Of a stretch of DNA of 32,000 nucleotides, positions 1 through 29,448 are shown piece by piece. The notes beneath the pieces are model-generated. The model ran no database searches, was not told the DNA's origin, and saw only the letters and a program-made list of their open reading frames with translations. A program made the translations under genes and the position numbers. Source of the stretch: Candidatus Saccharimonadota bacterium (GTDB taxonomy: Bacteria > Patescibacteriota > Saccharimonadia > Saccharimonadales > Saccharimonadaceae); NCBI GenBank assembly GCA_020160975.1, contig JAIUPJ010000001.1, positions 870,001-902,000 on the forward strand. The letters are read 5' to 3'. How positions within the stretch are numbered: the stretch's first letter is position 1; each line of letters opens with the position of its first letter.

Positions 1-2889
1 AACGATTGGAGCAAGGAAGTTTCGACGCACTTGCCGATCTATTACAAATGGACACAGTGGATTTTCTCAGAGATGTACCGTGCAGGACTTGCCTACCAAG
101 AACCACGCATGCAATGGTGGTGCACCAAGTGCCAAACGGTGCTCGCGAATGAGCAAGTAATCGACGGTAAATGTTGGCGCCACGACGCTCCTGATGACCC
201 GGAAGTCGCCAAAAAAGAAGTCAAACAGTGGTTTTTCAAAGTGACAGAATATGCCGATGAGATGCTCGAAGCCACCGATGCGCTCGACTGGAGCGAGGTA
301 GTAAAGGCTGCCCAGAAGAACTGGATAGGCAAGAGTGAGGGTGCGGAGGTACAGTTTGAAGTTCTGAGCTCTACTTTCTTAGAGAAAAAGGAGTCTAAAG
401 ATTCGCTGAAGTTTACCCCAGAGCTGACCAAAATGATCATCGACGGTAGCAAGACGTCCACTATTCGTCTTGAGCCAAAAAATGTAAACGTCGGGGACAC
501 AGTGGAGCTACTGACGCGCGATGGGGAAAGCGTTGACGCATTTGGATATGCGAAAATTACAAATATTCGCGCCATGAAGCTTGTTGATATTCCTAATGAC
601 CTGGCAGGTCACGAGCCGCTTAAAGATGATGCAGATAAACTGGCGCGATACCGTGGATATTATACGGACAACGTAACGCTTGAGACTGAATTTACCATTT
701 ACGACTTTGATAACTTAGAACTCAGATCTCAGAACGTAGAGCTCGATCCCATCACTGTCTTTACCACTCGTCCCGATACCATTTTTGGCGCGACGTTTTT
801 GGTGCTGGCGCCGGAGCACGAGTTGGTCAAACAAATTGTGACAGATGATGCGCGTGATGTCGTAGAGCAATATGTCAAGGATTCACTGAAAAAGTCAGAA
901 CTCGAGCGTCAAGAGACTAAAGAAAAGACCGGTGTGCCGACAGGCGCGCATGCCATCAATCCCGCAACGGGCGAGAAAATCCCTATCTGGGTGGCTGACT
1001 ATGTATTGGGTGGCTATGGCACTGGGGCTATCATGGCGGTGCCGGCACACGACGAGCGAGACCGGGAATTTGCGGAGAAGTTTGATTTGCCAGTAGTGCA
1101 AGTTGTGGCCGAAACGCTGCTTGATCAAGAAAATCCGCCTCGTGACGACAAGAAAAATACTCGGCGCAACGTAGCGATGTGCATTATCGACCATCCAACC
1201 GATGGGACGTTTTTGACGCTCAAATGGCATAAGCAACCATGGCATAATTTCGTGATGGGTGGCATCGAAGAAGGCGAGTCGCTCGAGGCCGCCGCGCGCC
1301 GAGAAATCACCGAAGAAACCGGCTATGTCGACATGTCGTTTGTCGAAAGTATGCCAGTCCCCCTCAATAGTAAGTTTTACGCAGCGCATAAAGACGTCAA
1401 CCGCGACATTATCACGCATGTCGTCCGGTTCAAACTCAATAGTCTCGATACGGTTGCGACTGCACGCGAGGAGCATGAGGATTTCGAGCCAATGTGGGTA
1501 GAGAAGTCAGCACTTTCTCAGTTGCAACCAGTCGCCGAGCTCGGGCATATTCTTCGTTGGCTCGACGGTGAAACACCGATTTATCATGGAGAAGGCGTAC
1601 TGGTAAATTCCGGCAAATTCGATGGTATGAGTAGTAGCGAGGCGCGCGAACAGATCGTGGCGTGGCTCGAGCAGCAAGGTGTCGGCAAAGCCAAAATAAC
1701 GTATAAAATCCGAGACTGGAGTGTCAGCCGCCAGCGCTATTGGGGCGCGCCGATTCCGGTCGTTCACTGCGACAAGGATGGTATCGTACTGGTGCCCGAT
1801 GACCTATTGCCAGTGATTTTGCCGGAGCTCGAAGATTTTGCCCCGAGCGGTGATGGTCGCAGCGCCCTGGCGCGCGCGACAGAGTGGCTCAACACGACCT
1901 GCCCAACATGTGGTGGCCCGTCAACCCGCGAGACCGATACGCTCGACACCTACATTTGTAGTAGTTGGTATTTCCTCAGGTATTTCGATGGTGCCAATGA
2001 GGAAAAGATTTTTGCCCCTGAAGTGGTCAACAAATGGATGCCGATAGACTTTTACAATGGCGGCGACCACGCGACGGCGCACATGATGTATGCACGATTT
2101 GTTACCCGCTTTTTTTGGCATCAAGGGCTGCTTGATAATCCCGAGCCGTTCAAAAAATTCCTCTTCAACGGCAAAGTGACCGCCAGTGACGGCACGATGT
2201 TCAGCAAGAGCAAAGGTAATGGTGTCGATCCACTCGAGATCATTAACCAAGGGTATGGCGCTGACGCCCTCCGGACGTATCTGATGTTTGCCGCGCCACT
2301 CGAGCAATGGATTCGCTGGGATTCACAGGGCGTACCTGGCACCTACCGCTTCCTCACTCGCGTGTGGAATTTGGCGCAAGAGTATCTTGCTGCCGACAAA
2401 TCACGCGTTGACGACACAGCACTGAGGCTTGTTCATCCTGTGATCAAAAAAGTTACAGGCGACCTGGAGGAGCAAAAGTACAACACAGCAATCGCCGCCA
2501 TGATGGAGTTGACGAACAATCTCTACGCGCTCAAGGCCAAAAATGGTTTCAGCAGTGACTGGCAGTTCGCGCTCGAGAGCCTGGTAGCGCTCGTAGCGCC
2601 TTTTGCGCCACACATGGCCGATCAGCTGTGGCACGACCTTGGTCATGAGACGAGTGTACAGCGCGATAGCTGGCCGCAGTGGGATGACGCTTACCTGACG
2701 AGTGACACAATGACGATTATTGTACAAGTCAATGGCAAATTGCGCGCCAAGCTGGAAATTGCAGTAGATACGAACGAAGTTGAAATCAAAAAACTCGCCC
2801 TAGAAGACGAGAACGTGCAGAAGTTTGTGACTAACGAGCCAAAGAAGGTTATTTACGTTAAAAACAAGCTCGTTAGTATTGTCGTGTAG
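1..2889 (+). CDS. leuS: Leucine--tRNA ligase, 5'-truncated by the window edge (frame is open from nt 1), carrying two extra inserted domains
   Basis: Class I LeuRS motifs: NWIGKSEGAEV, TTRPDTIFGATFLVLAPEH (CP1 editing start), GTGAIMAVPAHDERD, YKIRDWSVSRQRYWGAPIP, a CPTCGG zinc motif, a KMSKS-like FSKSKGNG, and a C-terminal VQVNGKLR tRNA-binding domain. Stop TAG at 2887-2889. Confidence 0.95.
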   Translation, partial: NDWSKEVSTHLPIYYKWTQWIFSEMYRAGLAYQEPRMQWWCTKCQTVLANEQVIDGKCWRHDAPDDPEVAKKEVKQWFFKVTEYADEMLEATDALDWSEVVKAAQKNWIGKSEGAEVQFEVLSSTFLEKKESKDSLKFTPELTKMIIDGSKTSTIRLEPKNVNVGDTVELLTRDGESVDAFGYAKITNIRAMKLVDIPNDLAGHEPLKDDADKLARYRGYYTDNVTLETEFTIYDFDNLELRSQNVELDPITVFTTRPDTIFGATFLVLAPEHELVKQIVTDDARDVVEQYVKDSLKKSELERQETKEKTGVPTGAHAINPATGEKIPIWVADYVLGGYGTGAIMAVPAHDERDREFAEKFDLPVVQVVAETLLDQENPPRDDKKNTRRNVAMCIIDHPTDGTFLTLKWHKQPWHNFVMGGIEEGESLEAAARREITEETGYVDMSFVESMPVPLNSKFYAAHKDVNRDIITHVVRFKLNSLDTVATAREEHEDFEPMWVEKSALSQLQPVAELGHILRWLDGETPIYHGEGVLVNSGKFDGMSSSEAREQIVAWLEQQGVGKAKITYKIRDWSVSRQRYWGAPIPVVHCDKDGIVLVPDDLLPVILPELEDFAPSGDGRSALARATEWLNTTCPTCGGPSTRETDTLDTYICSSWYFLRYFDGANEEKIFAPEVVNKWMPIDFYNGGDHATAHMMYARFVTRFFWHQGLLDNPEPFKKFLFNGKVTASDGTMFSKSKGNGVDPLEIINQGYGADALRTYLMFAAPLEQWIRWDSQGVPGTYRFLTRVWNLAQEYLAADKSRVDDTALRLVHPVIKKVTGDLEEQKYNTAIAAMMELTNNLYALKAKNGFSSDWQFALESLVALVAPFAPHMADQLWHDLGHETSVQRDSWPQWDDAYLTSDTMTIIVQVNGKLRAKLEIAVDTNEVEIKKLALEDENVQKFVTNEPKKVIYVKNKLVSIVV
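403..714 (+). other. ASCH/PUA-like domain inserted in LeuS between GAEVQFEV and the TTRPDT editing-domain start (boundaries approximate)
   Basis: About 125 extra residues compared with E. coli and T. thermophilus LeuRS as I recall them. Pattern FTPELTKMIIDGSKTSTIRL..NVGDTVEL..FGYAKITNIR..FTIYDF resembles the ASCH signature (I-x-x-G-x-K-T-x-x-R, GD, beta-barrel). Confidence 0.5.
1162..1566 (+). other. Nudix hydrolase domain inserted in LeuS directly after the editing domain (boundaries approximate)
   Basis: Perfect Nudix box GX5EX7REUXEEXGU: GGIEEGESLEAAARREITEETGY, nt 1258-1326. About 150 extra residues lie between FDLPVVQVV and GVLVNSGKFDG, which are nearly contiguous in ordinary LeuRS. Confidence 0.8.
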
Positions 2890-3566: not shown

Positions 3567-4028
3567 ATGGCCTCAAACCGTCATCTTGGACGCATCGTCG
3601 CATTACAGACACTCTACGAATTTGAATTTCGTAGTCAATCTGGAGATCCGGATGTCAATGTGGATGAAATCCTCGGTCGCAACCTCGCGAGATACGAGAC
3701 GGCGATTGATGATACGGCGTTTGTTAAAGACCTCGTCGAAGGCGTGCTTGCTGCGCGAGACGAACTGGATGCAAAGCTTCAGCCGATTGCCCCAGAATGG
3801 CCGCTCGAGCAGATCGCACGGATTGATCGCGCCGTACTGCGGCTTGGCTTGTATGAATTACTACACCGCAGCGACAAAGTGCCGCCAAAGGTAGCGATCA
3901 ATGAAGCGGTTGAGCTGGCAAAAGCATTTGGTTCTGATAACTCGAGTAAGTTCATTAACGGCGTGCTTGGCACGGCGTTTCGAACACTGCTAGGAGAGTC
4001 AGATAATGCCGAAACCACAAAAGCCTAG
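3567..4028 (+). CDS. nusB: Transcription antitermination factor NusB
   Basis: LQTLYEFEF near the N-terminus and [25 protein letters not shown], the classic NusB C-terminal motif. Confidence 0.9.
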
Positions 4029-4503
4029 GCTCGAAACATTCAAGAAATACTTCAAGCCCAAGGCATCAATACAAGAGATTGTCCGCGAGCCAACTGCTGG
4101 TGGCATCGTGTTTCGTCATGGCGAAAAAGATATTGAAATTCTACTGATTCAGGATGCAAAAGATCGCTGGACGATCCCCAAAGGCCATATCGAAGAGGGT
4201 GAGACGGCTGTCCAGACTGCCCGTCGTGAGATTGGCGAAGAAGCCGGTTTGACCGACGTTGATATGCTGGGGTGGCTCGGCAAGATTCACTTTCGCTACC
4301 GCCGTATCGACCGACTGGTGCTCATGACAACGCAGATTTATCTGGTGCGAGTGCGCACTGATGGTAATGAGATCAAGAAGGAAGAGTGGATGAATGGCAT
4401 TAAATGGTTTTCGTTCAATGAAGCGCTAGACCTGATCGAGTATGAAGATATCGCGAAGCTAATGCTCAAAGCCAAAACCCGGGTGCGCGAGGAGAACTTG
4501 TAG
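4006..4503 (+). CDS. Nudix hydrolase (165 aa), overlapping the nusB 3' end by 23 nt
   Basis: Nudix box [25 protein letters not shown] aggagag at 3991-3997. Confidence 0.85.
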
Positions 4504-4669
4504 TGGCTACTATCTCGTGGCACGCTACTGCGTTATCAGCTTCAGTGCTCGCGAGCAGTACTATCTCTGTGCAGTTCGCTCCGCTCTTCGCCGATGCCTC
4601 GTATCGCATCCGCGAGTCGGCAGCCCATGCGCATATAGTCAAAAATGACAAAGACGCAAGGAGAAAAAA

Positions 4670-4825
4670 ATGAAAATGATTGAGACTTTAGGAAAGAGCA
4701 GATGGTTACGACGAATTGATTGCGTCGCGCCGCTCGACAAACGGGTTCCCCAAGAAATTGAAGATTCACTGGGGTGTGGTGGAAAAACTGTTTACAGCTG
4801 TCTCATAGGCCGGAGGCGATCATGA
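4670..4825 (+). CDS. Candidate small ORF (51 aa) translationally coupled to rnc
   Basis: AAGGAG at 4658-4663, 6 nt before ATG 4670. Its stop TGA overlaps the rnc ATG (ATGA at 4822-4825). No recognisable family, so it could be chance. Confidence 0.25.
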   Translation: MKMIETLGKSRWLRRIDCVAPLDKRVPQEIEDSLGCGGKTVYSCLIGRRRS

Positions 4826-5538
4826 CCGGCATGCCAATCGGACCATACGTTGCGTTTGCGAAAGAGAAATTAGGGTTTGAATACAACGATATTCAACTTT
4901 TGATTACTGCACTGACGCACCGCAGTTATGTCAATGAGCACAAAAAAAGTGTTAGCGAGCACAATGAGCGGCTGGAATTTCTCGGTGATGCGGTGCTGGA
5001 GTTAGTCGTGACCGACTATCTATATCGTAATTTTAGCGAGCCAGAAGGTGTTTTGACCAGCTGGCGCGCGGCTCTCGTCCGAACAGAGAGTATCGGTGAC
5101 GCCGGTCAGAAGCTTGGCTACGAACACCTCGTCCGAATGAGCAAGGGAGAGAAACAGGGCTCGGAGCGGGCGCGTTTGCAAATCCTTGCCAATGCGTTTG
5201 AAGCGACAATTGGTTCGATCTACCTCGACCAAGGCTACGACAAGGCCAGCGATTTTATCCACGCACATATCCTCAGCAAGCTCGACACCATCCTGAGCGA
5301 GGGTACTTGGCGTGATCCCAAGAGCCATTTGCAAGAAGTCAGTCAGCGCATCGACGGCGCCACACCAGTCTATAAAGTGATGGACGAGCTAGGCCCCGAT
5401 CATGACAAAGTCTTTACGCTCGGTGCGTATGTGAATGGAACATTGATGGGTAAGGGTATCGGACCAAGCAAGCAAAGCGCCCAGCAAGAGGCTGCTCGCG
5501 CGGCACTCAAGGCCTACGAAAAACGGCAAAATCCATAA
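4822..5538 (+). CDS. rnc: Ribonuclease III
   Basis: ALTHRSY and NERLEFLGDAVLELVV (RNase III signature) plus a C-terminal dsRBD (KSHLQE..GPSKQSAQQEAARAAL). Start moved from the track's GTG 4774 to ATG 4822, which has GGAGG at 4812-4816. Confidence 0.9.
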   Translation: MTGMPIGPYVAFAKEKLGFEYNDIQLLITALTHRSYVNEHKKSVSEHNERLEFLGDAVLELVVTDYLYRNFSEPEGVLTSWRAALVRTESIGDAGQKLGYEHLVRMSKGEKQGSERARLQILANAFEATIGSIYLDQGYDKASDFIHAHILSKLDTILSEGTWRDPKSHLQEVSQRIDGATPVYKVMDELGPDHDKVFTLGAYVNGTLMGKGIGPSKQSAQQEAARAALKAYEKRQNP

Positions 5539-25647: not shown

Positions 25648-26559
25648 ATGAAAAAGTACCGCGTGATGTTTGGGGTAGCCGCTACGATTATTATCTTGTC
25701 ATTGTTAGGGTATTTATTGGCGCGGACGGGACATTATGACATCTTGCAGCCAATGGGTGATATCGCCAAGCAGCAACGCAACTTACTGTACTTTGCATTG
25801 CTGCTTTGTGCTGTAGTGGTGGTACCGGTATTTATCATGCTCGGTAGTTTCGCGTGGAAATTCCGTGAAGGCAACAAAAAGGCGCACTACAAACCAGAAT
25901 GGAGTGAAAATAAACTCCTTGAGGTTGTGTGGTGGGGGATTCCGATCGTCATTATCAGTATCCTGGCGGTTGTTGCATGGTCTACAAGCCATTCGCTCGA
26001 CCCGTATCGTCCTATTGCCTCCAACAAAAAAGCCATTGAAGTGCAAGTTGTCGCGTTGCAGTGGAAATGGCTATTTATTTACCCAGAACTTGGCGTGGCG
26101 ACACTCAATCAATTGCCAGTACCCGTCGGAACGCCGGTGCATTTTACACTAACTGCTGATGCGCCGATGAGCGCGTTTTGGGTGCCAACGCTTGGTTCGC
26201 AAATCTACACGATGAATGGCATGAGTAGCCAGCTTTACTTGATCGCCGACCATGCGGGCGATTTCCCTGGATACACGACGAATATCAATGGCGAGGGATA
26301 TGCTGACATGAAATTCATGGTACATGCGCAACCTGAAGCAGCATTTAATTCGTGGGTTGAACGAGCTAGGGGGTCGTCGCAGATGATGGACGCTGCCGCC
26401 TACGAGACACTTGCAAAACCAGGAGTCATTACCGAAGAGCGAGAATATATGCTGATGGACGACAACTTGTATAGTAAAGTTCTAGAAAAATACATGGCAC
26501 CAAAAGACCAGCAAATGGATCACAGCTCGTCGACGATGCCGGTAATGGAGGGAATGTAA
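25648..26559 (+). CDS. cyoA: Cytochrome bo3-type ubiquinol oxidase subunit II
   Basis: Two N-terminal TM helices and a cupredoxin-like domain. ALQWKWLFIYPELGVATLNQL resembles E. coli CyoA (DWKWFFIYPEQGIATVNE). Operon context. Confidence 0.9.
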   Translation: MKKYRVMFGVAATIIILSLLGYLLARTGHYDILQPMGDIAKQQRNLLYFALLLCAVVVVPVFIMLGSFAWKFREGNKKAHYKPEWSENKLLEVVWWGIPIVIISILAVVAWSTSHSLDPYRPIASNKKAIEVQVVALQWKWLFIYPELGVATLNQLPVPVGTPVHFTLTADAPMSAFWVPTLGSQIYTMNGMSSQLYLIADHAGDFPGYTTNINGEGYADMKFMVHAQPEAAFNSWVERARGSSQMMDAAAYETLAKPGVITEEREYMLMDDNLYSKVLEKYMAPKDQQMDHSSSTMPVMEGM

Positions 26560-28514
26560 TGTTTGGTCGACTGAGCTTGGATTATCTGCCACACGAACCG
26601 GCAACTATTGGAGCAGCCGTTGCTATGCCATTGGCGCTGATCGCTATTGCTGTCGCACTGACGTACTATAAGAAATGGCGCTGGCTCTGGCGTGAGTGGC
26701 TGACATCGCTTGATGCCAAAAAAATCGGTGTCATGTATATCGTGGTGGCTATCGTAATGTTGCTTCGTGGCGTGGCGGACGCGGTGATGCTTCGTATGCA
26801 GACGGCGCTAGCGGTGGGTGATAATCCCGGGCTGTTTAGCGTAGACACATTTCAGCAGGTATTTACTGCTCACGGCACAATTATGATTTTTTTCGTGGCG
26901 ATGGGGTTGATGTTTGGGATTATCAATGTCGTCATGCCGCTACAAATTGGCGCGCGAGATGTGGCATTTCCGTGGCTAAACTCAGTCAGTTTTTGGTTGT
27001 TTGTGGCGGGGATGATTCTGGTTAACGGGGCGCTACTATTTGGTGGCTTTAGCAACGGTGGTTGGCTCGGCTATCCTCCGCTCACAGAGCTGCAGTACAA
27101 TCCCGGCCCGGGGGTTGACTACTGGATTTGGGCACTGCAAATTGCGGGCATTGGCTCGCTGCTCAGCGGTATTAATTTCACAGTGACAATCCTCAAAAAA
27201 CGCGCACCTGGCATGACGCTGATGAAAATGCCGATTTTTGTCTGGAGTGTGTTGGTGACGATGGTGTTGGTCATGATTTCATTCCCCATGCTGACGAGCG
27301 CACTCAGCCTTCTCGCACTTGACCGCACACTCGACATGCATTTCTTTACCAGCAATATGGGCGGGAACCCGATGATGTATATCAACCTTATATGGGCATG
27401 GGGACATCCCGAAGTGTATATTTTAGTCCTACCGGCATTTGGGATATATAGTGAGGTAGTAGCGACGTTCGCGCGCAAAAAATTGTTTGGCTACAAAACG
27501 ATGGTCGCTGCGTTGGTTGCGATCATGTTCTTCAGTTTTGTGGTATGGCAGCACCACTTCTTCACGATGGGAGCGGGTGCGAATGTTAATGCGTTCTTTG
27601 GCATTATGACGATGATCATCGCTATCCCGACGGGCGTCAAAATCTTTAACTGGCTCTTTACGATGTACCGTGGCCGGATTCGTTTCACCGCGCCGTTTGT
27701 CTGGTTTATGTGTTTTGTCGTGACCTTTACGATTGGTGGAGTGACGGGCGTATTGATGGCAGTGCCAGCGCTTGACTTCCAAATTCATAACAGCATGTTC
27801 TTGGTGGCGCACTTCCATAATGTGATTATTGGCGGCGTAGTCTTTGGTTATCTCGCAGGAATTACCTATTGGTTTCCAAAAGTACTCGGGTTTCGTTTGC
27901 ATGACCGCCTGGGGCGCTGGTCAGCCTATGCTTGGCAGGTGGGGTTTTTGTTGGCATTTCTGCCGCTCTACGCGCTGGGCCTAATGGGCGCGGTGCGGCG
28001 GATCGATCACTACACTGACCCGAGCTGGCAGCCGTTCTTTATTGTGTCGGCTGTCGGTGTGCTGACGATCGCACTGGGTATTGGCTTGTTTGTATTGCAG
28101 ATCGGAGTGAGTGTGTGGCAACGTAAGAAGCTGCGTGATACAAATGGCGATCCCTGGGACGGCCGTACATTGGAGTGGTCGGTGCCATCGCCTGCGCCCC
28201 ACTATAACTTTGCAATCCAGCCAACAGTGAGCCGGATTGATGAATGGTGGTACCAGAAAAAAGATGGCGTGGCACGACCTACTCGAAACGACTACAAAGA
28301 CATTGTTCTGCCGAAAAATAGTGGGCTAGGAGTGGCGATCGGTCTGTTGTGCTTTGTATTTGGCGGCGCAGTGATTTGGCACCTATGGTGGCTCGCGGCG
28401 TTAGCATTTGTCGGTGTGATCGTGGTGATACTGGTGCGAACCTTTGATGAAAATACTGAGTATACGATGACAGCTGAAAAGCTGTACCAAGAGGCGAAGG
28501 AGGCGCGGGTATGA
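26559..28514 (+). CDS. cyoB: Cytochrome bo3-type ubiquinol oxidase subunit I
   Basis: Long runs match E. coli CyoB as I recall it: MFG.LSLD, EWLTS.D.K..G.MYI.VAIVMLLRG, YINLIWAWGHPEVYIL, HHFFTMGAGANVNAFFGI.TMIIAIPTGVKIFNWLFTMY.GRI, HFHNVIIGGVVFG. Confidence 0.97.
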   Translation: MFGRLSLDYLPHEPATIGAAVAMPLALIAIAVALTYYKKWRWLWREWLTSLDAKKIGVMYIVVAIVMLLRGVADAVMLRMQTALAVGDNPGLFSVDTFQQVFTAHGTIMIFFVAMGLMFGIINVVMPLQIGARDVAFPWLNSVSFWLFVAGMILVNGALLFGGFSNGGWLGYPPLTELQYNPGPGVDYWIWALQIAGIGSLLSGINFTVTILKKRAPGMTLMKMPIFVWSVLVTMVLVMISFPMLTSALSLLALDRTLDMHFFTSNMGGNPMMYINLIWAWGHPEVYILVLPAFGIYSEVVATFARKKLFGYKTMVAALVAIMFFSFVVWQHHFFTMGAGANVNAFFGIMTMIIAIPTGVKIFNWLFTMYRGRIRFTAPFVWFMCFVVTFTIGGVTGVLMAVPALDFQIHNSMFLVAHFHNVIIGGVVFGYLAGITYWFPKVLGFRLHDRLGRWSAYAWQVGFLLAFLPLYALGLMGAVRRIDHYTDPSWQPFFIVSAVGVLTIALGIGLFVLQIGVSVWQRKKLRDTNGDPWDGRTLEWSVPSPAPHYNFAIQPTVSRIDEWWYQKKDGVARPTRNDYKDIVLPKNSGLGVAIGLLCFVFGGAVIWHLWWLAALAFVGVIVVILVRTFDENTEYTMTAEKLYQEAKEARV

Positions 28515-29086
28515 TCAGAACGAAAGAGCAAGAAAGTGCCCCGATGCTAGGATTTTGGTTGTACCTGATGACAGATTTGATGCTATTTGCTACGGTATTT
28601 GCAACCTTTATGGTGTTGCGGCACGCTACAGCAGGCGGGCCAAGCGCGCCAGAACTATTCTCCATGAAAACGGTGCTGACTGAAACAATGATATTGCTAG
28701 CAAGTAGCTTGTTCTGCGGTCTGGCATGGCTGGCACTTCGTCACAAAAAACGCACAGATTTCTTGATGTATAGCATCGCGACATTGCTGGCTGGCGCAGT
28801 GTTTTTGGCAATCGAGATCCAAGAGTTTGCTCAGCTTGTGCATGAAGGATTCGGGCCAAGCACGAGCGCGTTTTTGAGTAGCTTTTTCACACTTGTTGGT
28901 ATGCATGGATTTCACATTGCGATTGGATTACTATGGGGGATAGCACTGTTGATTATGTTTGCGAAAAAGGGTTTCGGGTCGTCGCTCGCAAGAAAGTTTG
29001 CGCTGTTTGCGGTATTTTGGCATTTTCTTGATATTGTCTGGATATTCATTTTCACCATTGTGTATGTTATAGGAGTGCACGCATGA
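28511..29086 (+). CDS. cyoC: Cytochrome bo3-type ubiquinol oxidase subunit III
   Basis: Five-TM protein with LGFWLYLMTDLMLFATVFATF and FWHFLDIVWIFIFT motifs. ATGA overlap with cyoB. Confidence 0.9.
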   Translation: MIRTKEQESAPMLGFWLYLMTDLMLFATVFATFMVLRHATAGGPSAPELFSMKTVLTETMILLASSLFCGLAWLALRHKKRTDFLMYSIATLLAGAVFLAIEIQEFAQLVHEGFGPSTSAFLSSFFTLVGMHGFHIAIGLLWGIALLIMFAKKGFGSSLARKFALFAVFWHFLDIVWIFIFTIVYVIGVHA

Positions 29087-29448
29087 GCGCCATTGACGAC
29101 TATCGCAAAGAAACGATCCGATATATTGTTGGTGCCGTGGCAGCAGCAGTCCTGACATATGTGGTGTATATGGTTGCTGTCGAACAACGGCTCGAGGCCG
29201 TGTGGCTGGCGGTAGTTGCGCTGGGCCTAGCGATGGTGCAGCTGTTAGTGCAAATGGTGAGCTTTCTCCACCTGGGAAATGAAACCAAGCCGCGCTGGAA
29301 AGCGCAGAGCTTTGTTTTTGCTTTCCTCATGGCGACGGTGATTATGGTGGGGTCTATTTGGATCATGGCGAACCTCGACTACAATATGGGCATGTCGCCG
29401 CAGCAAATGGATGAGTACATGATAAAACAAAACAAAAAAGGCTTTTAA
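29083..29448 (+). CDS. cyoD: Cytochrome bo3-type ubiquinol oxidase subunit IV
   Basis: Three-TM small subunit at the conserved operon position. VQLLVQMVSFLHL resembles CyoD. ATGA overlap with cyoC. Confidence 0.8.
   Translation: MSAIDDYRKETIRYIVGAVAAAVLTYVVYMVAVEQRLEAVWLAVVALGLAMVQLLVQMVSFLHLGNETKPRWKAQSFVFAFLMATVIMVGSIWIMANLDYNMGMSPQQMDEYMIKQNKKGF

Follow-up and report, generated by a model that had tools for sequence, protein, structure and literature searches.

A predicted Nudix hydrolase nested within the CP1 editing domain of a Saccharimonadota leucyl-tRNA synthetase belongs to a synthetase-associated Nudix family

A stretch of DNA of 32,000 nucleotides (nt) from a Candidatus Saccharimonadota bacterium (GenBank assembly GCA_020160975.1, contig JAIUPJ010000001.1, positions 870,001 to 902,000 of the forward strand; hereafter the window) was found to carry a leuS gene for leucyl-tRNA synthetase (LeuRS) in which a Nudix domain occupies a loop on the surface of the CP1 editing domain. 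Sequence comparison places this domain in a distinct Nudix family that is genetically tied to aminoacyl-tRNA synthetases, and its nested form is conserved over much of the candidate phyla radiation (CPR). The tRNA synthetases are among the best-studied of enzymes, and their accretion of extra domains is usually viewed as a eukaryotic trait linked to signalling; here a complete and, judging from its residues, apparently active hydrolase lies inside the proofreading domain of a bacterial synthetase. The reading that we favour, if only slightly, is that of an autonomous metal-dependent pyrophosphohydrolase tethered to LeuRS, which would cleave a nucleoside-polyphosphate that is either made by the synthetase or harmful to it.

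The leuS gene occupies positions 1 to 2889 of the window on the + strand, on which all genes and domains of the window described here lie. Frame 1 is uninterrupted from position 1 to the stop codon at 2887-2889, giving a product of 962 codons, with the 5' end of the gene beyond the window edge. The offset to P0121, a full-length LeuRS of 1080 amino acids (aa) from an independent assembly that is 98% identical and has the same architecture, indicates that about 118 N-terminal codons are missing from the window. The product scored 747.7 bits against the bacterial LeuRS model TIGR00396 (cut-off 548.4) and was aligned with the LeuRS of Thermus thermophilus (PDB 1H3N) with an E-value of 1.6e-185. 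Pfam matches were obtained for the editing domain, the catalytic core, the anticodon-binding domain, the NUDIX domain and, more weakly, an ASCH domain.

The Nudix insert comprises aa 371-527 (nt 1111-1581), as placed by Pfam, the alignment to 1H3N, AlphaFold and Foldseek, and consists of 157 residues where T. thermophilus LeuRS has a loop of 13 (residues 364-376). These values agree with the original prediction, made from the letters of the window without database searches, of an insertion of about 150 residues, and come close enough to the spacing of about 20 residues that it had given for T. thermophilus. The left flank reads ...AHDERDREFAEKFDLPVVQVV, with aa 370 corresponding to T. thermophilus residue 363, and the right flank reads YHGEGVLVNSG, with aa 528 corresponding to residue 377; with a slash marking each junction, these are QVVAE/TLLD and PIYH/GEGV. 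The profile of the editing domain (PF13603) is split by the insert. Its positions 23-142 match aa 251-371 (E 1.1e-49), which together with the 1H3N alignment defines the N-terminal part of CP1 at nt 751-1110, and its positions 155-185 match aa 527-557, which defines the C-terminal part at nt 1582-1704, resuming at YHGEGVLVNSGKFDG and aligning to 1H3N from residue 377. This split indicates that the Nudix domain is nested within CP1 and not after it, contrary to the first placement of the domain just behind the editing domain. The insert starts 16 residues beyond the essential editing aspartate D354.

A check against Pfam, which had been suggested along with that first placement, returned NUDIX (PF00293) at aa 390-520 with 50.5 bits (E 2.8e-13) for the whole protein, above the gathering score of 21.1, and with 56.1 bits (E 5.1e-15) for the excised segment. 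The Nudix box GGIEEGESLEAAARREITEETGY was located at G420-Y442 (nt 1258-1326) by reading the motif from the sequence. It had been described as an exact fit to GX5EX7REUXEEXGU; the coordinates and the glutamates stand, and the sole departure is the last U, which is a tyrosine (bulky and hydrophobic) in place of isoleucine, leucine or valine. As metal ligands the box supplies the glutamates E435 (nt 1303-1305) and E438/E439 (nt 1312-1317). Conservation across copies further identified family-specific residues 3' of the box (nt 1390-1497), namely K464, N467 and R468 of an HKDVNR motif, and W499.

An AlphaFold2 model built from aa 372-530 and 35 diverse homologues showed the Nudix strand-helix pattern with a pLDDT of 92.6 and a pTM of 0.86, and the alpha/beta/alpha sandwich of the Nudix fold was recovered both in this model and by Foldseek. 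Comparison with the PDB using Foldseek gave 555 matches at E <= 0.001, and all of the 50 best listed were Nudix proteins. The top matches were structures of Escherichia coli RppH, including RNA complexes (E 1.5e-9, TM 0.67-0.71), followed by 2azw (an uncharacterised Enterococcus Nudix protein), NudI, the Ap4A hydrolases 3i7u, 1kt9 and 4mpo, ADP-ribose pyrophosphatases and MutT. A PDB profile search matched 2azw, 3fk9, the lupin Ap4A hydrolase 1f3y, AvrM14, NudI and RppH. In a larger model of aa 100-575 (ASCH, CP1 and Nudix; pLDDT 86.5, pTM 0.68) both inserts were well folded, with confidence high across both Nudix junctions and low in the ASCH linkers. The Nudix fold of aa 371-527 is certain, and Nudix superfamily membership is borne out by model, box and predicted fold alike.

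Selection on the predicted catalytic core was examined across 349 non-redundant family domains gathered with a family profile, 272 of them nested in LeuRS. Among the nested copies, E435 and E439 were kept in all 272, E438 in 268, G420 in 271, K464 in 267, W499 in 268 and N467 in 237. The remaining box positions were less strictly held, with R434 kept in 234 of the 272 (otherwise methionine, alanine or lysine) and E426 in 229 (glutamine in 30). The same pattern was found for stand-alone copies and for those nested in prolyl-tRNA synthetase (ProRS; see below). Pairwise identity within the family falls to 20-25%, and retention of the glutamates at such low identity indicates strong purifying selection on the metal site. 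This conservation argues for catalysis by the nested domain and, together with the confidently modelled fold, supports, at the level of sequence, the earlier suggestion, drawn from the intact glutamates, that the domain may be active.

The editing and synthetic motifs of the host enzyme are also intact. The threonine-rich motif TTRPDT was found at aa 255-260 (nt 763-780), with T255, T256 and T260 present, and the motif AHDERD supplies D351 and D354 (nt 1051-1062), equivalent to D344 and D347 of T. thermophilus. Residues T256, R257, D259, T260, H350, D351, R353 and D354 were invariant in the alignment of LeuRS with and without the Nudix domain; T255, the first threonine of TTRPDT, varies and is serine in some LeuRS. 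A KMSKS-type loop, FSKSK, was located at aa 734-738 (nt 2200-2214) by alignment to 1H3N from residue 637 onward, and its presence indicates a working synthetase. The HIGH motif lies outside the window, and we infer its presence from the 98% identical P0121. The leucine-specific domain (T. thermophilus residues 580-636) is missing from the window LeuRS, in which aa 728 corresponds to residue 579 and aa 733 to residue 637 (window 2185-2200).

The first homology search, made with the insert and its flanks, gave only proteins shorter than 400 aa and was probably biased to query length, since it missed the full-length P0121. The comparison set of 121 LeuRS consists of the window protein and its 120 closest full-length LeuRS (Saccharibacteria and Saccharimonadales where names are given). 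An insert of more than 90 residues was identified at the Nudix site in 78 of the 121, and in 76 of these it is the Nudix domain. Four architectures were found, namely plain LeuRS (~811 aa, 23/121), LeuRS with the Nudix-site insert alone (~960 aa, 58/121), with an insert at the first CP1 site alone (~925 aa, 20/121; in the window this site holds the ASCH domain) and with inserts at both sites (~1080 aa, 20/121). A scan of one genome per species confirmed at least 172 relatives, and in 76 of 80 fetched loci the Nudix domain was found between the CP1 halves at the same LeuRS site. These counts, the continuous frame and the shared architecture of P0121 uphold the claim of a genuine internal domain, and the survey of LeuS lengths and insertions in related genomes that had been proposed shows the insert to recur at its site. 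Inserts of about 101 residues lacking a Nudix box were found at the Nudix site (corresponding to window 1111-1581) in P0202 and P0228.

The relatives carry the CPR labels Saccharibacteria, Parcubacteria/Paceibacterota, Berkel-, Buchanan-, Taylor-, Magasanik-, Kaiser-, Moran-, Adler-, Peri- and Gracilibacteria, and outside the CPR about 15 gut genomes are labelled as Bacilli or Erysipelotrichaceae and a few as Woesearchaeota. Split LeuRS genes or UGA recoding were considered for two loci; when read in all frames, these proved to be frameshifted assemblies and not cases of in-frame UGA. Both an 811-aa plain LeuRS (on a contig of 812,921 nt) and the 1080-aa form are embedded in the order Mur ligase - leuS - nusB - Nudix - rnc - rpsP. 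The window leuS is taken as the housekeeping copy because it shares this conserved neighbourhood with the plain 811-aa leuS of a relative, and the plain and 1080-aa forms are read, from sequence and gene order, as the same housekeeping gene with or without inserts. Plain and insert-bearing LeuRS in the same neighbourhood provide natural controls.

The family to which the nested domain belongs has the signature GGx5Ex7REx2EExGY ... [FY]x3Kx2NR ... W. An exhaustive HMMER search with the family profile over 1.84 billion representatives gave 1058 representative clusters at E <= 1e-10. Among the 145 best new representatives, 107 had LeuRS around the Nudix domain, 29 were stand-alone (154-210 aa) and nine had other architectures, a LeuRS share that is inflated because the profile was built from LeuRS-nested copies. 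Within LeuRS, further positions were identified at the first CP1 site and just ahead of 'LDWPE', and a single protein can contain as many as three copies. The family was also found in a second synthetase, P0375, an archaeal-type ProRS with the Nudix domain between the anticodon-binding and C-terminal domains; four more ProRS clusters with the domain (P0386-P0389, 61-74% identity) bring the independent clusters to five, and their nearest plain relatives are labelled Woesearchaeota or Nanoarchaeota. In another ProRS of that archaeal-type group (P0473, 716 aa), a B3_4 domain (PF03483) is present.

Stand-alone members were repeatedly found beside synthetase genes. One lies 2 nt upstream of an insert-bearing leuS (P0254), one precedes an insert-free leuS by 3 nt on three contigs (P0275), and one lies 135 nt upstream of an insert-bearing leuS, the two copies there being 29% identical (P0305). 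Another is upstream of a ThrRS/AlaX-like gene (P0280), and the copy of L054 overlaps the end of pth beside hisS. Free-standing CP1-like proteins of about 270-390 aa with a Nudix domain in the same loop were also observed (L040 3144-4013, L048 3129-3989, P0328, P0370 and P0379); in these the threonine-rich motif is lost or degraded and AHDxxD has become AHIEED or LHVKEH. To our knowledge, free-standing homologues of CP1-type editing domains have not been described so far.

According to the pyrophosphohydrolase reading, the nested domain would take no part in leucylation or post-transfer editing. ATP or another nucleoside triphosphate (NTP) would attack enzyme-bound Leu-AMP to form Ap4A, Ap3A or Ap4N, and the Nudix domain would cleave such ApnN to reusable mononucleotides. 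It is established that tRNA synthetases form Ap4A and other ApnN via the aminoacyl-adenylate and that Nudix enzymes of the RppH/NudH class are asymmetrical Ap4A hydrolases (PMC7705103). Dinucleoside polyphosphates (Ap4A, Ap3A, Ap4N) are ranked first as substrate because synthetases make ApnN and because the closest structural neighbours, RppH/NudH, hydrolyse ApnA asymmetrically; this assignment is a tentative best guess. The next candidate is the clearing of damaged or non-canonical NTPs in a nucleotide-scavenging cell, suggested by stand-alone members adjacent to fpg or UDG and by a Ham1/ITPase domain nested in the LeuRS of a relative. The family works from several LeuRS sites, from ProRS and from a separate gene, so that a precise geometry relative to the editing pocket is unlikely to matter, and selection seems to act on proximity or co-expression.

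A broader proposal, which we regard as speculative and rather doubtful as a whole, is that the Nudix domain forms a third, cis-acting hydrolytic quality-control site that destroys adenylate side products (Ap4A, Ap3A, Ap4N) or damaged ATP analogues where they arise. The class I LeuRS and the class II ProRS would each have acquired it separately, in ultra-small symbiotic lineages that scavenge nucleotides (CPR bacteria, DPANN archaea and reduced Bacilli), and, with nested Ham1, HAD, ASCH and serine hydrolase domains, it would turn LeuRS into a platform on which nucleotides and metabolites are repaired. If the domain does remove dinucleoside polyphosphates or damaged nucleotides, this would be the first synthetase with its own by-product hydrolase and would bear on how nucleotide pools are kept clean in organisms without nucleotide synthesis. 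The CP1 domain of LeuRS is also the target of benzoxaborole drugs, for which reason large inserts beside the editing pocket could alter drug access.

Several observations weigh against a pyrophosphohydrolase serving the synthetase, in addition to the inflated LeuRS share noted above. The insert is dispensable, as each of the four architectures is represented among relatives with 76-80% identity to the window LeuRS (best local alignment, covering 45-75% of the query), and a rough neighbour-joining tree requires at least 15 state changes for the Nudix site and at least 21 for the first site. A single conserved gene neighbourhood holds leuS with or without inserts. Unrelated Ham1, HAD, serine hydrolase and ASCH domains are likewise nested in the LeuRS of relatives, which favours a permissive scaffold, and some stand-alone Nudix members adjoin fpg (4 nt apart) or lie near UDG and not beside a synthetase gene. 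One sub-clade has alanine or methionine for the box arginine and glutamine for the first glutamate. Regarding the subfamily, the best NCBIfam equivalogs, the RppH models (PRK00714), gave 34 bits against a cut-off of 118, and the MutT 8-oxo-dGTPase model (PRK10776) gave 19.6 bits against 148. Foldseek E-values were nearly alike across Nudix subfamilies, those for NudI, ADP-ribose pyrophosphatase and MutT being within two orders of magnitude of that for RppH, and permit no subfamily assignment; no known Nudix subfamily signature was matched with confidence to the motifs of the domain. Membership of the RppH, MutT or ADP-ribose pyrophosphatase subfamilies is not demonstrable given that the cut-offs were missed.

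Many of these points would be expected if LeuRS were simply a permissive, constitutively expressed scaffold and the Nudix domain a passenger doing an ordinary cell-wide job (MutT-like or pool cleaning) with no mechanistic tie to leucylation. Ham1/ITPase (191 bits), HAD_2, Ser_hydrolase, ASCH and up to three Nudix copies occupy at least four LeuRS sites in relatives, the insert is patchy among close relatives that share one neighbourhood, a further stand-alone Nudix member lies in a cluster with HAD and low-molecular-weight phosphatase genes, and one plain leuS has a separate Ham1 gene 3.5 kb away. A passenger does not readily account for the presence of the same Nudix family in both the class I LeuRS and the class II ProRS, which are unrelated, nor for a separate Nudix gene 2-3 nt upstream of leuS, including a leuS free of the insert, which is a classic signature of a functional link. 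Moreover, the nusB-adjacent Nudix gene of the window (4006-4503) was not recruited: it is of a different family, scoring 44 bits on the nested-family profile against 213 for the nested domain, with weak best matches to MutT1 and RppH models. A passenger role is the main rival reading, a possibility of some substance, though not one we expect to hold. An origin of the nested domain as a duplicate of the 4006-4503 gene was rejected on the same scores, the similarity between the two being limited to the box.

An RNA-directed enzyme, which would remove pyrophosphate or a cap (NAD, Np4A) from tRNA or RNA held by the synthetase in the manner of RppH or NudC, is considered unlikely. The resemblance to RppH that suggests it (the top structural matches with their RNA complexes, and the best NCBIfam matches) falls far under the family cut-offs and is non-discriminating, as RppH is itself an ApnA hydrolase (PMC7705103). 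The AvrM14 decapping effectors among the PDB profile matches, the established tRNA geometry in which the 5' end adjoins the CP1-bound acceptor end, and the one stand-alone copy beside pth also point in this direction. Against it, the occurrence of the family at three or more LeuRS sites and at a ProRS site argues against a fixed geometry toward bound tRNA, and mature tRNA 5' ends are normally monophosphates.

It is very improbable that the domain is a non-catalytic module of Nudix fold serving as a nucleotide sensor, tRNA-binding surface or brace of CP1, comparable to the inactive Nudix protein CFIm25. The sub-clade without the box arginine and first glutamate would fit such a role, and the high model confidence at both Nudix junctions is compatible with a fixed structural one; yet the three metal-ligand glutamates are near-invariant across very deep divergence (20-30% identity) in nested, stand-alone and ProRS copies, and the window copy has a complete box. 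An artefact or selfish element (assembly chimera, mis-joined neighbouring gene, intein or recent mobile insertion) can be set aside with near certainty, despite the patchy distribution and the inverted repeats that bracket the other insert (ASCH), since the same codon-level insert site in hundreds of independent assemblies refutes a chimera, and recent foreign or mobile origin is rejected, being disfavoured by an insert GC of 0.51-0.52 that equals the gene average, by ends at which no direct repeats, terminal repeats or target-site duplications were found, and by junctions with no end-to-end complementarity (z = 0.02 in the window, mean -0.40 over 76 loci) and no visible intein-type splicing residues.

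The second insert of the window LeuRS is an ASCH (PUA-like) domain of 129 residues in CP1 (aa 122-250, nt 364-750), which replaces T. thermophilus residues 237-242 according to Pfam, the 1H3N alignment and the model. ASCH (PF04266) was matched with 26 bits for the excised segment and 22.6 bits for the whole protein (aa 136-202; gathering score 21.2), and its pLDDT was 88-96 within the aa 100-575 model. Like the Nudix insert, it is present or absent among close relatives, some of which hold an alpha/beta hydrolase or another domain at this first site in its place. Inverted repeats bracket the ASCH insert (window 361-383 and 714-744), with 18-nt arms that are 89% complementary and a duplex of -43.5 kcal/mol (z = -3.5). 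The same insert in the closest genome, Saccharibacteria UBA1949 (L003 2711-2757, 3050-3089), is flanked by complementary arms of another sequence (29 nt, 86%, -62.4 kcal/mol, z = -4.4). Similar bracketing repeats were not found at the Nudix insert or at most other first-site inserts. These repeats could be an insertion relic, a deletion-prone palindrome or an mRNA structure.

Giant LeuRS genes were observed among the CPR (L023 681-5885, L072 2169-6248, L056 1875-5789, L031 2340-5975 and L029 3-3434). In a Taylorbacteria LeuRS of 1735 aa, three Nudix domains are accompanied by a serine hydrolase and a HAD domain; a LeuRS of 1360 aa contains a Nudix domain and a complete Ham1/ITPase (191 bits), and other giant forms contain either two Nudix copies or a serine hydrolase that follows the HCxxC region. 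These sequences make LeuRS look like a hot-spot for the nesting of hydrolases. In the relative L098, stand-alone genes for Ham1/ITPase and HD_4 (a RelA/SpoT-type HD domain) were found a few kb upstream of a plain leuS (527-1081, 1997-2635), which is of note given the Ham1 domain nested in the LeuRS of another CPR genome. Downstream of leuS in the window (3567-5538) are nusB (3567-4028), the Nudix gene mentioned above (4006-4503, overlapping nusB by 23 nt) and rnc (4774-5538), an order that is kept in L098 and L101. Farther along (25648-29448, especially 26559-28514), an ORF for CyoB, subunit I of a cytochrome o/bo3-type quinol oxidase, was identified with 1019 bits against a cut-off of 1020, with subunit-sized ORFs as neighbours; its presence in a Saccharibacteria-like genome points to a member of the group that uses oxygen.

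This architecture is already present in public databases under automatically assigned names, for example P0180 as 'NUDIX domain-containing protein'. A literature search of open-access papers found no description of a Nudix domain in LeuRS or any other synthetase, and NCBIfam was found to name leuS and generic Nudix models with no curated LeuRS-Nudix model among them. The LeuRS-nested Nudix is recurrent in hundreds of uncultured relatives yet apparently has never been studied.

The nearest known systems are E. coli RppH (NudH/YgdP) and the Ap4A hydrolases (human NUDT2, lupin 1F3Y, Aquifex 3I7U and Caenorhabditis elegans 1KT9), which likewise consist of one Nudix-fold domain, some 150 residues long, that contains a canonical box, and are the best structural (TM ~0.7) and sequence-profile neighbours of the nested domain. 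Their substrates (ApnA, Np4-capped or 5'-ppp RNA) are by-products of aminoacyl-adenylate chemistry (PMC7705103). The nested domain differs from them in being only 17-22% identical, in missing their equivalog cut-offs widely, in having its own K-x2-N-R and tryptophan motifs and an N-terminal extension of NPPR type, and in being nested within another enzyme whereas these hydrolases are free-standing. The axis of LysRS, Ap4A and NUDT2/ApaH similarly has a synthetase as the source of dinucleoside polyphosphate and a Nudix hydrolase as the sink (PMC7705103); that axis involves separate proteins with an established signalling role, whereas LeuRS and Nudix form a single polypeptide for which both Ap4A activities are conjectural.

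The HIGH superfamily of adenylyl-transferring enzymes includes the class I synthetases. In the NadM-Nudix and NMNAT-Nudix fusions an enzyme of this superfamily is paired with a Nudix domain, which breaks down a pyrophosphate-linked product (PMC7824862), although these are end-to-end fusions of NAD metabolism and the present domain lies in a loop of a synthetase editing domain. A class Ia synthetase with an unrelated catalytic domain is known in the IleRS with a GNAT (N-acetyltransferase) domain, a curated exception family (NCBIfam NF040702, 'ileS_w_GNAT') in which domain, synthetase and position all differ from those described here. The insert is further comparable to known CP1 variation, such as the eukaryotic and archaeal insertions and the leucine-specific domain, in showing that the CP1 region tolerates the gain and loss of modules, and Mycoplasma mobile LeuRS (PDB 3ZIU, 637 aa), which is without CP1, is a known loss of the whole module. 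Insertions known from CP1 tune editing as short peptides or structural caps, and none of them is an enzyme fold in its own right, unlike the Nudix insert of the window LeuRS.

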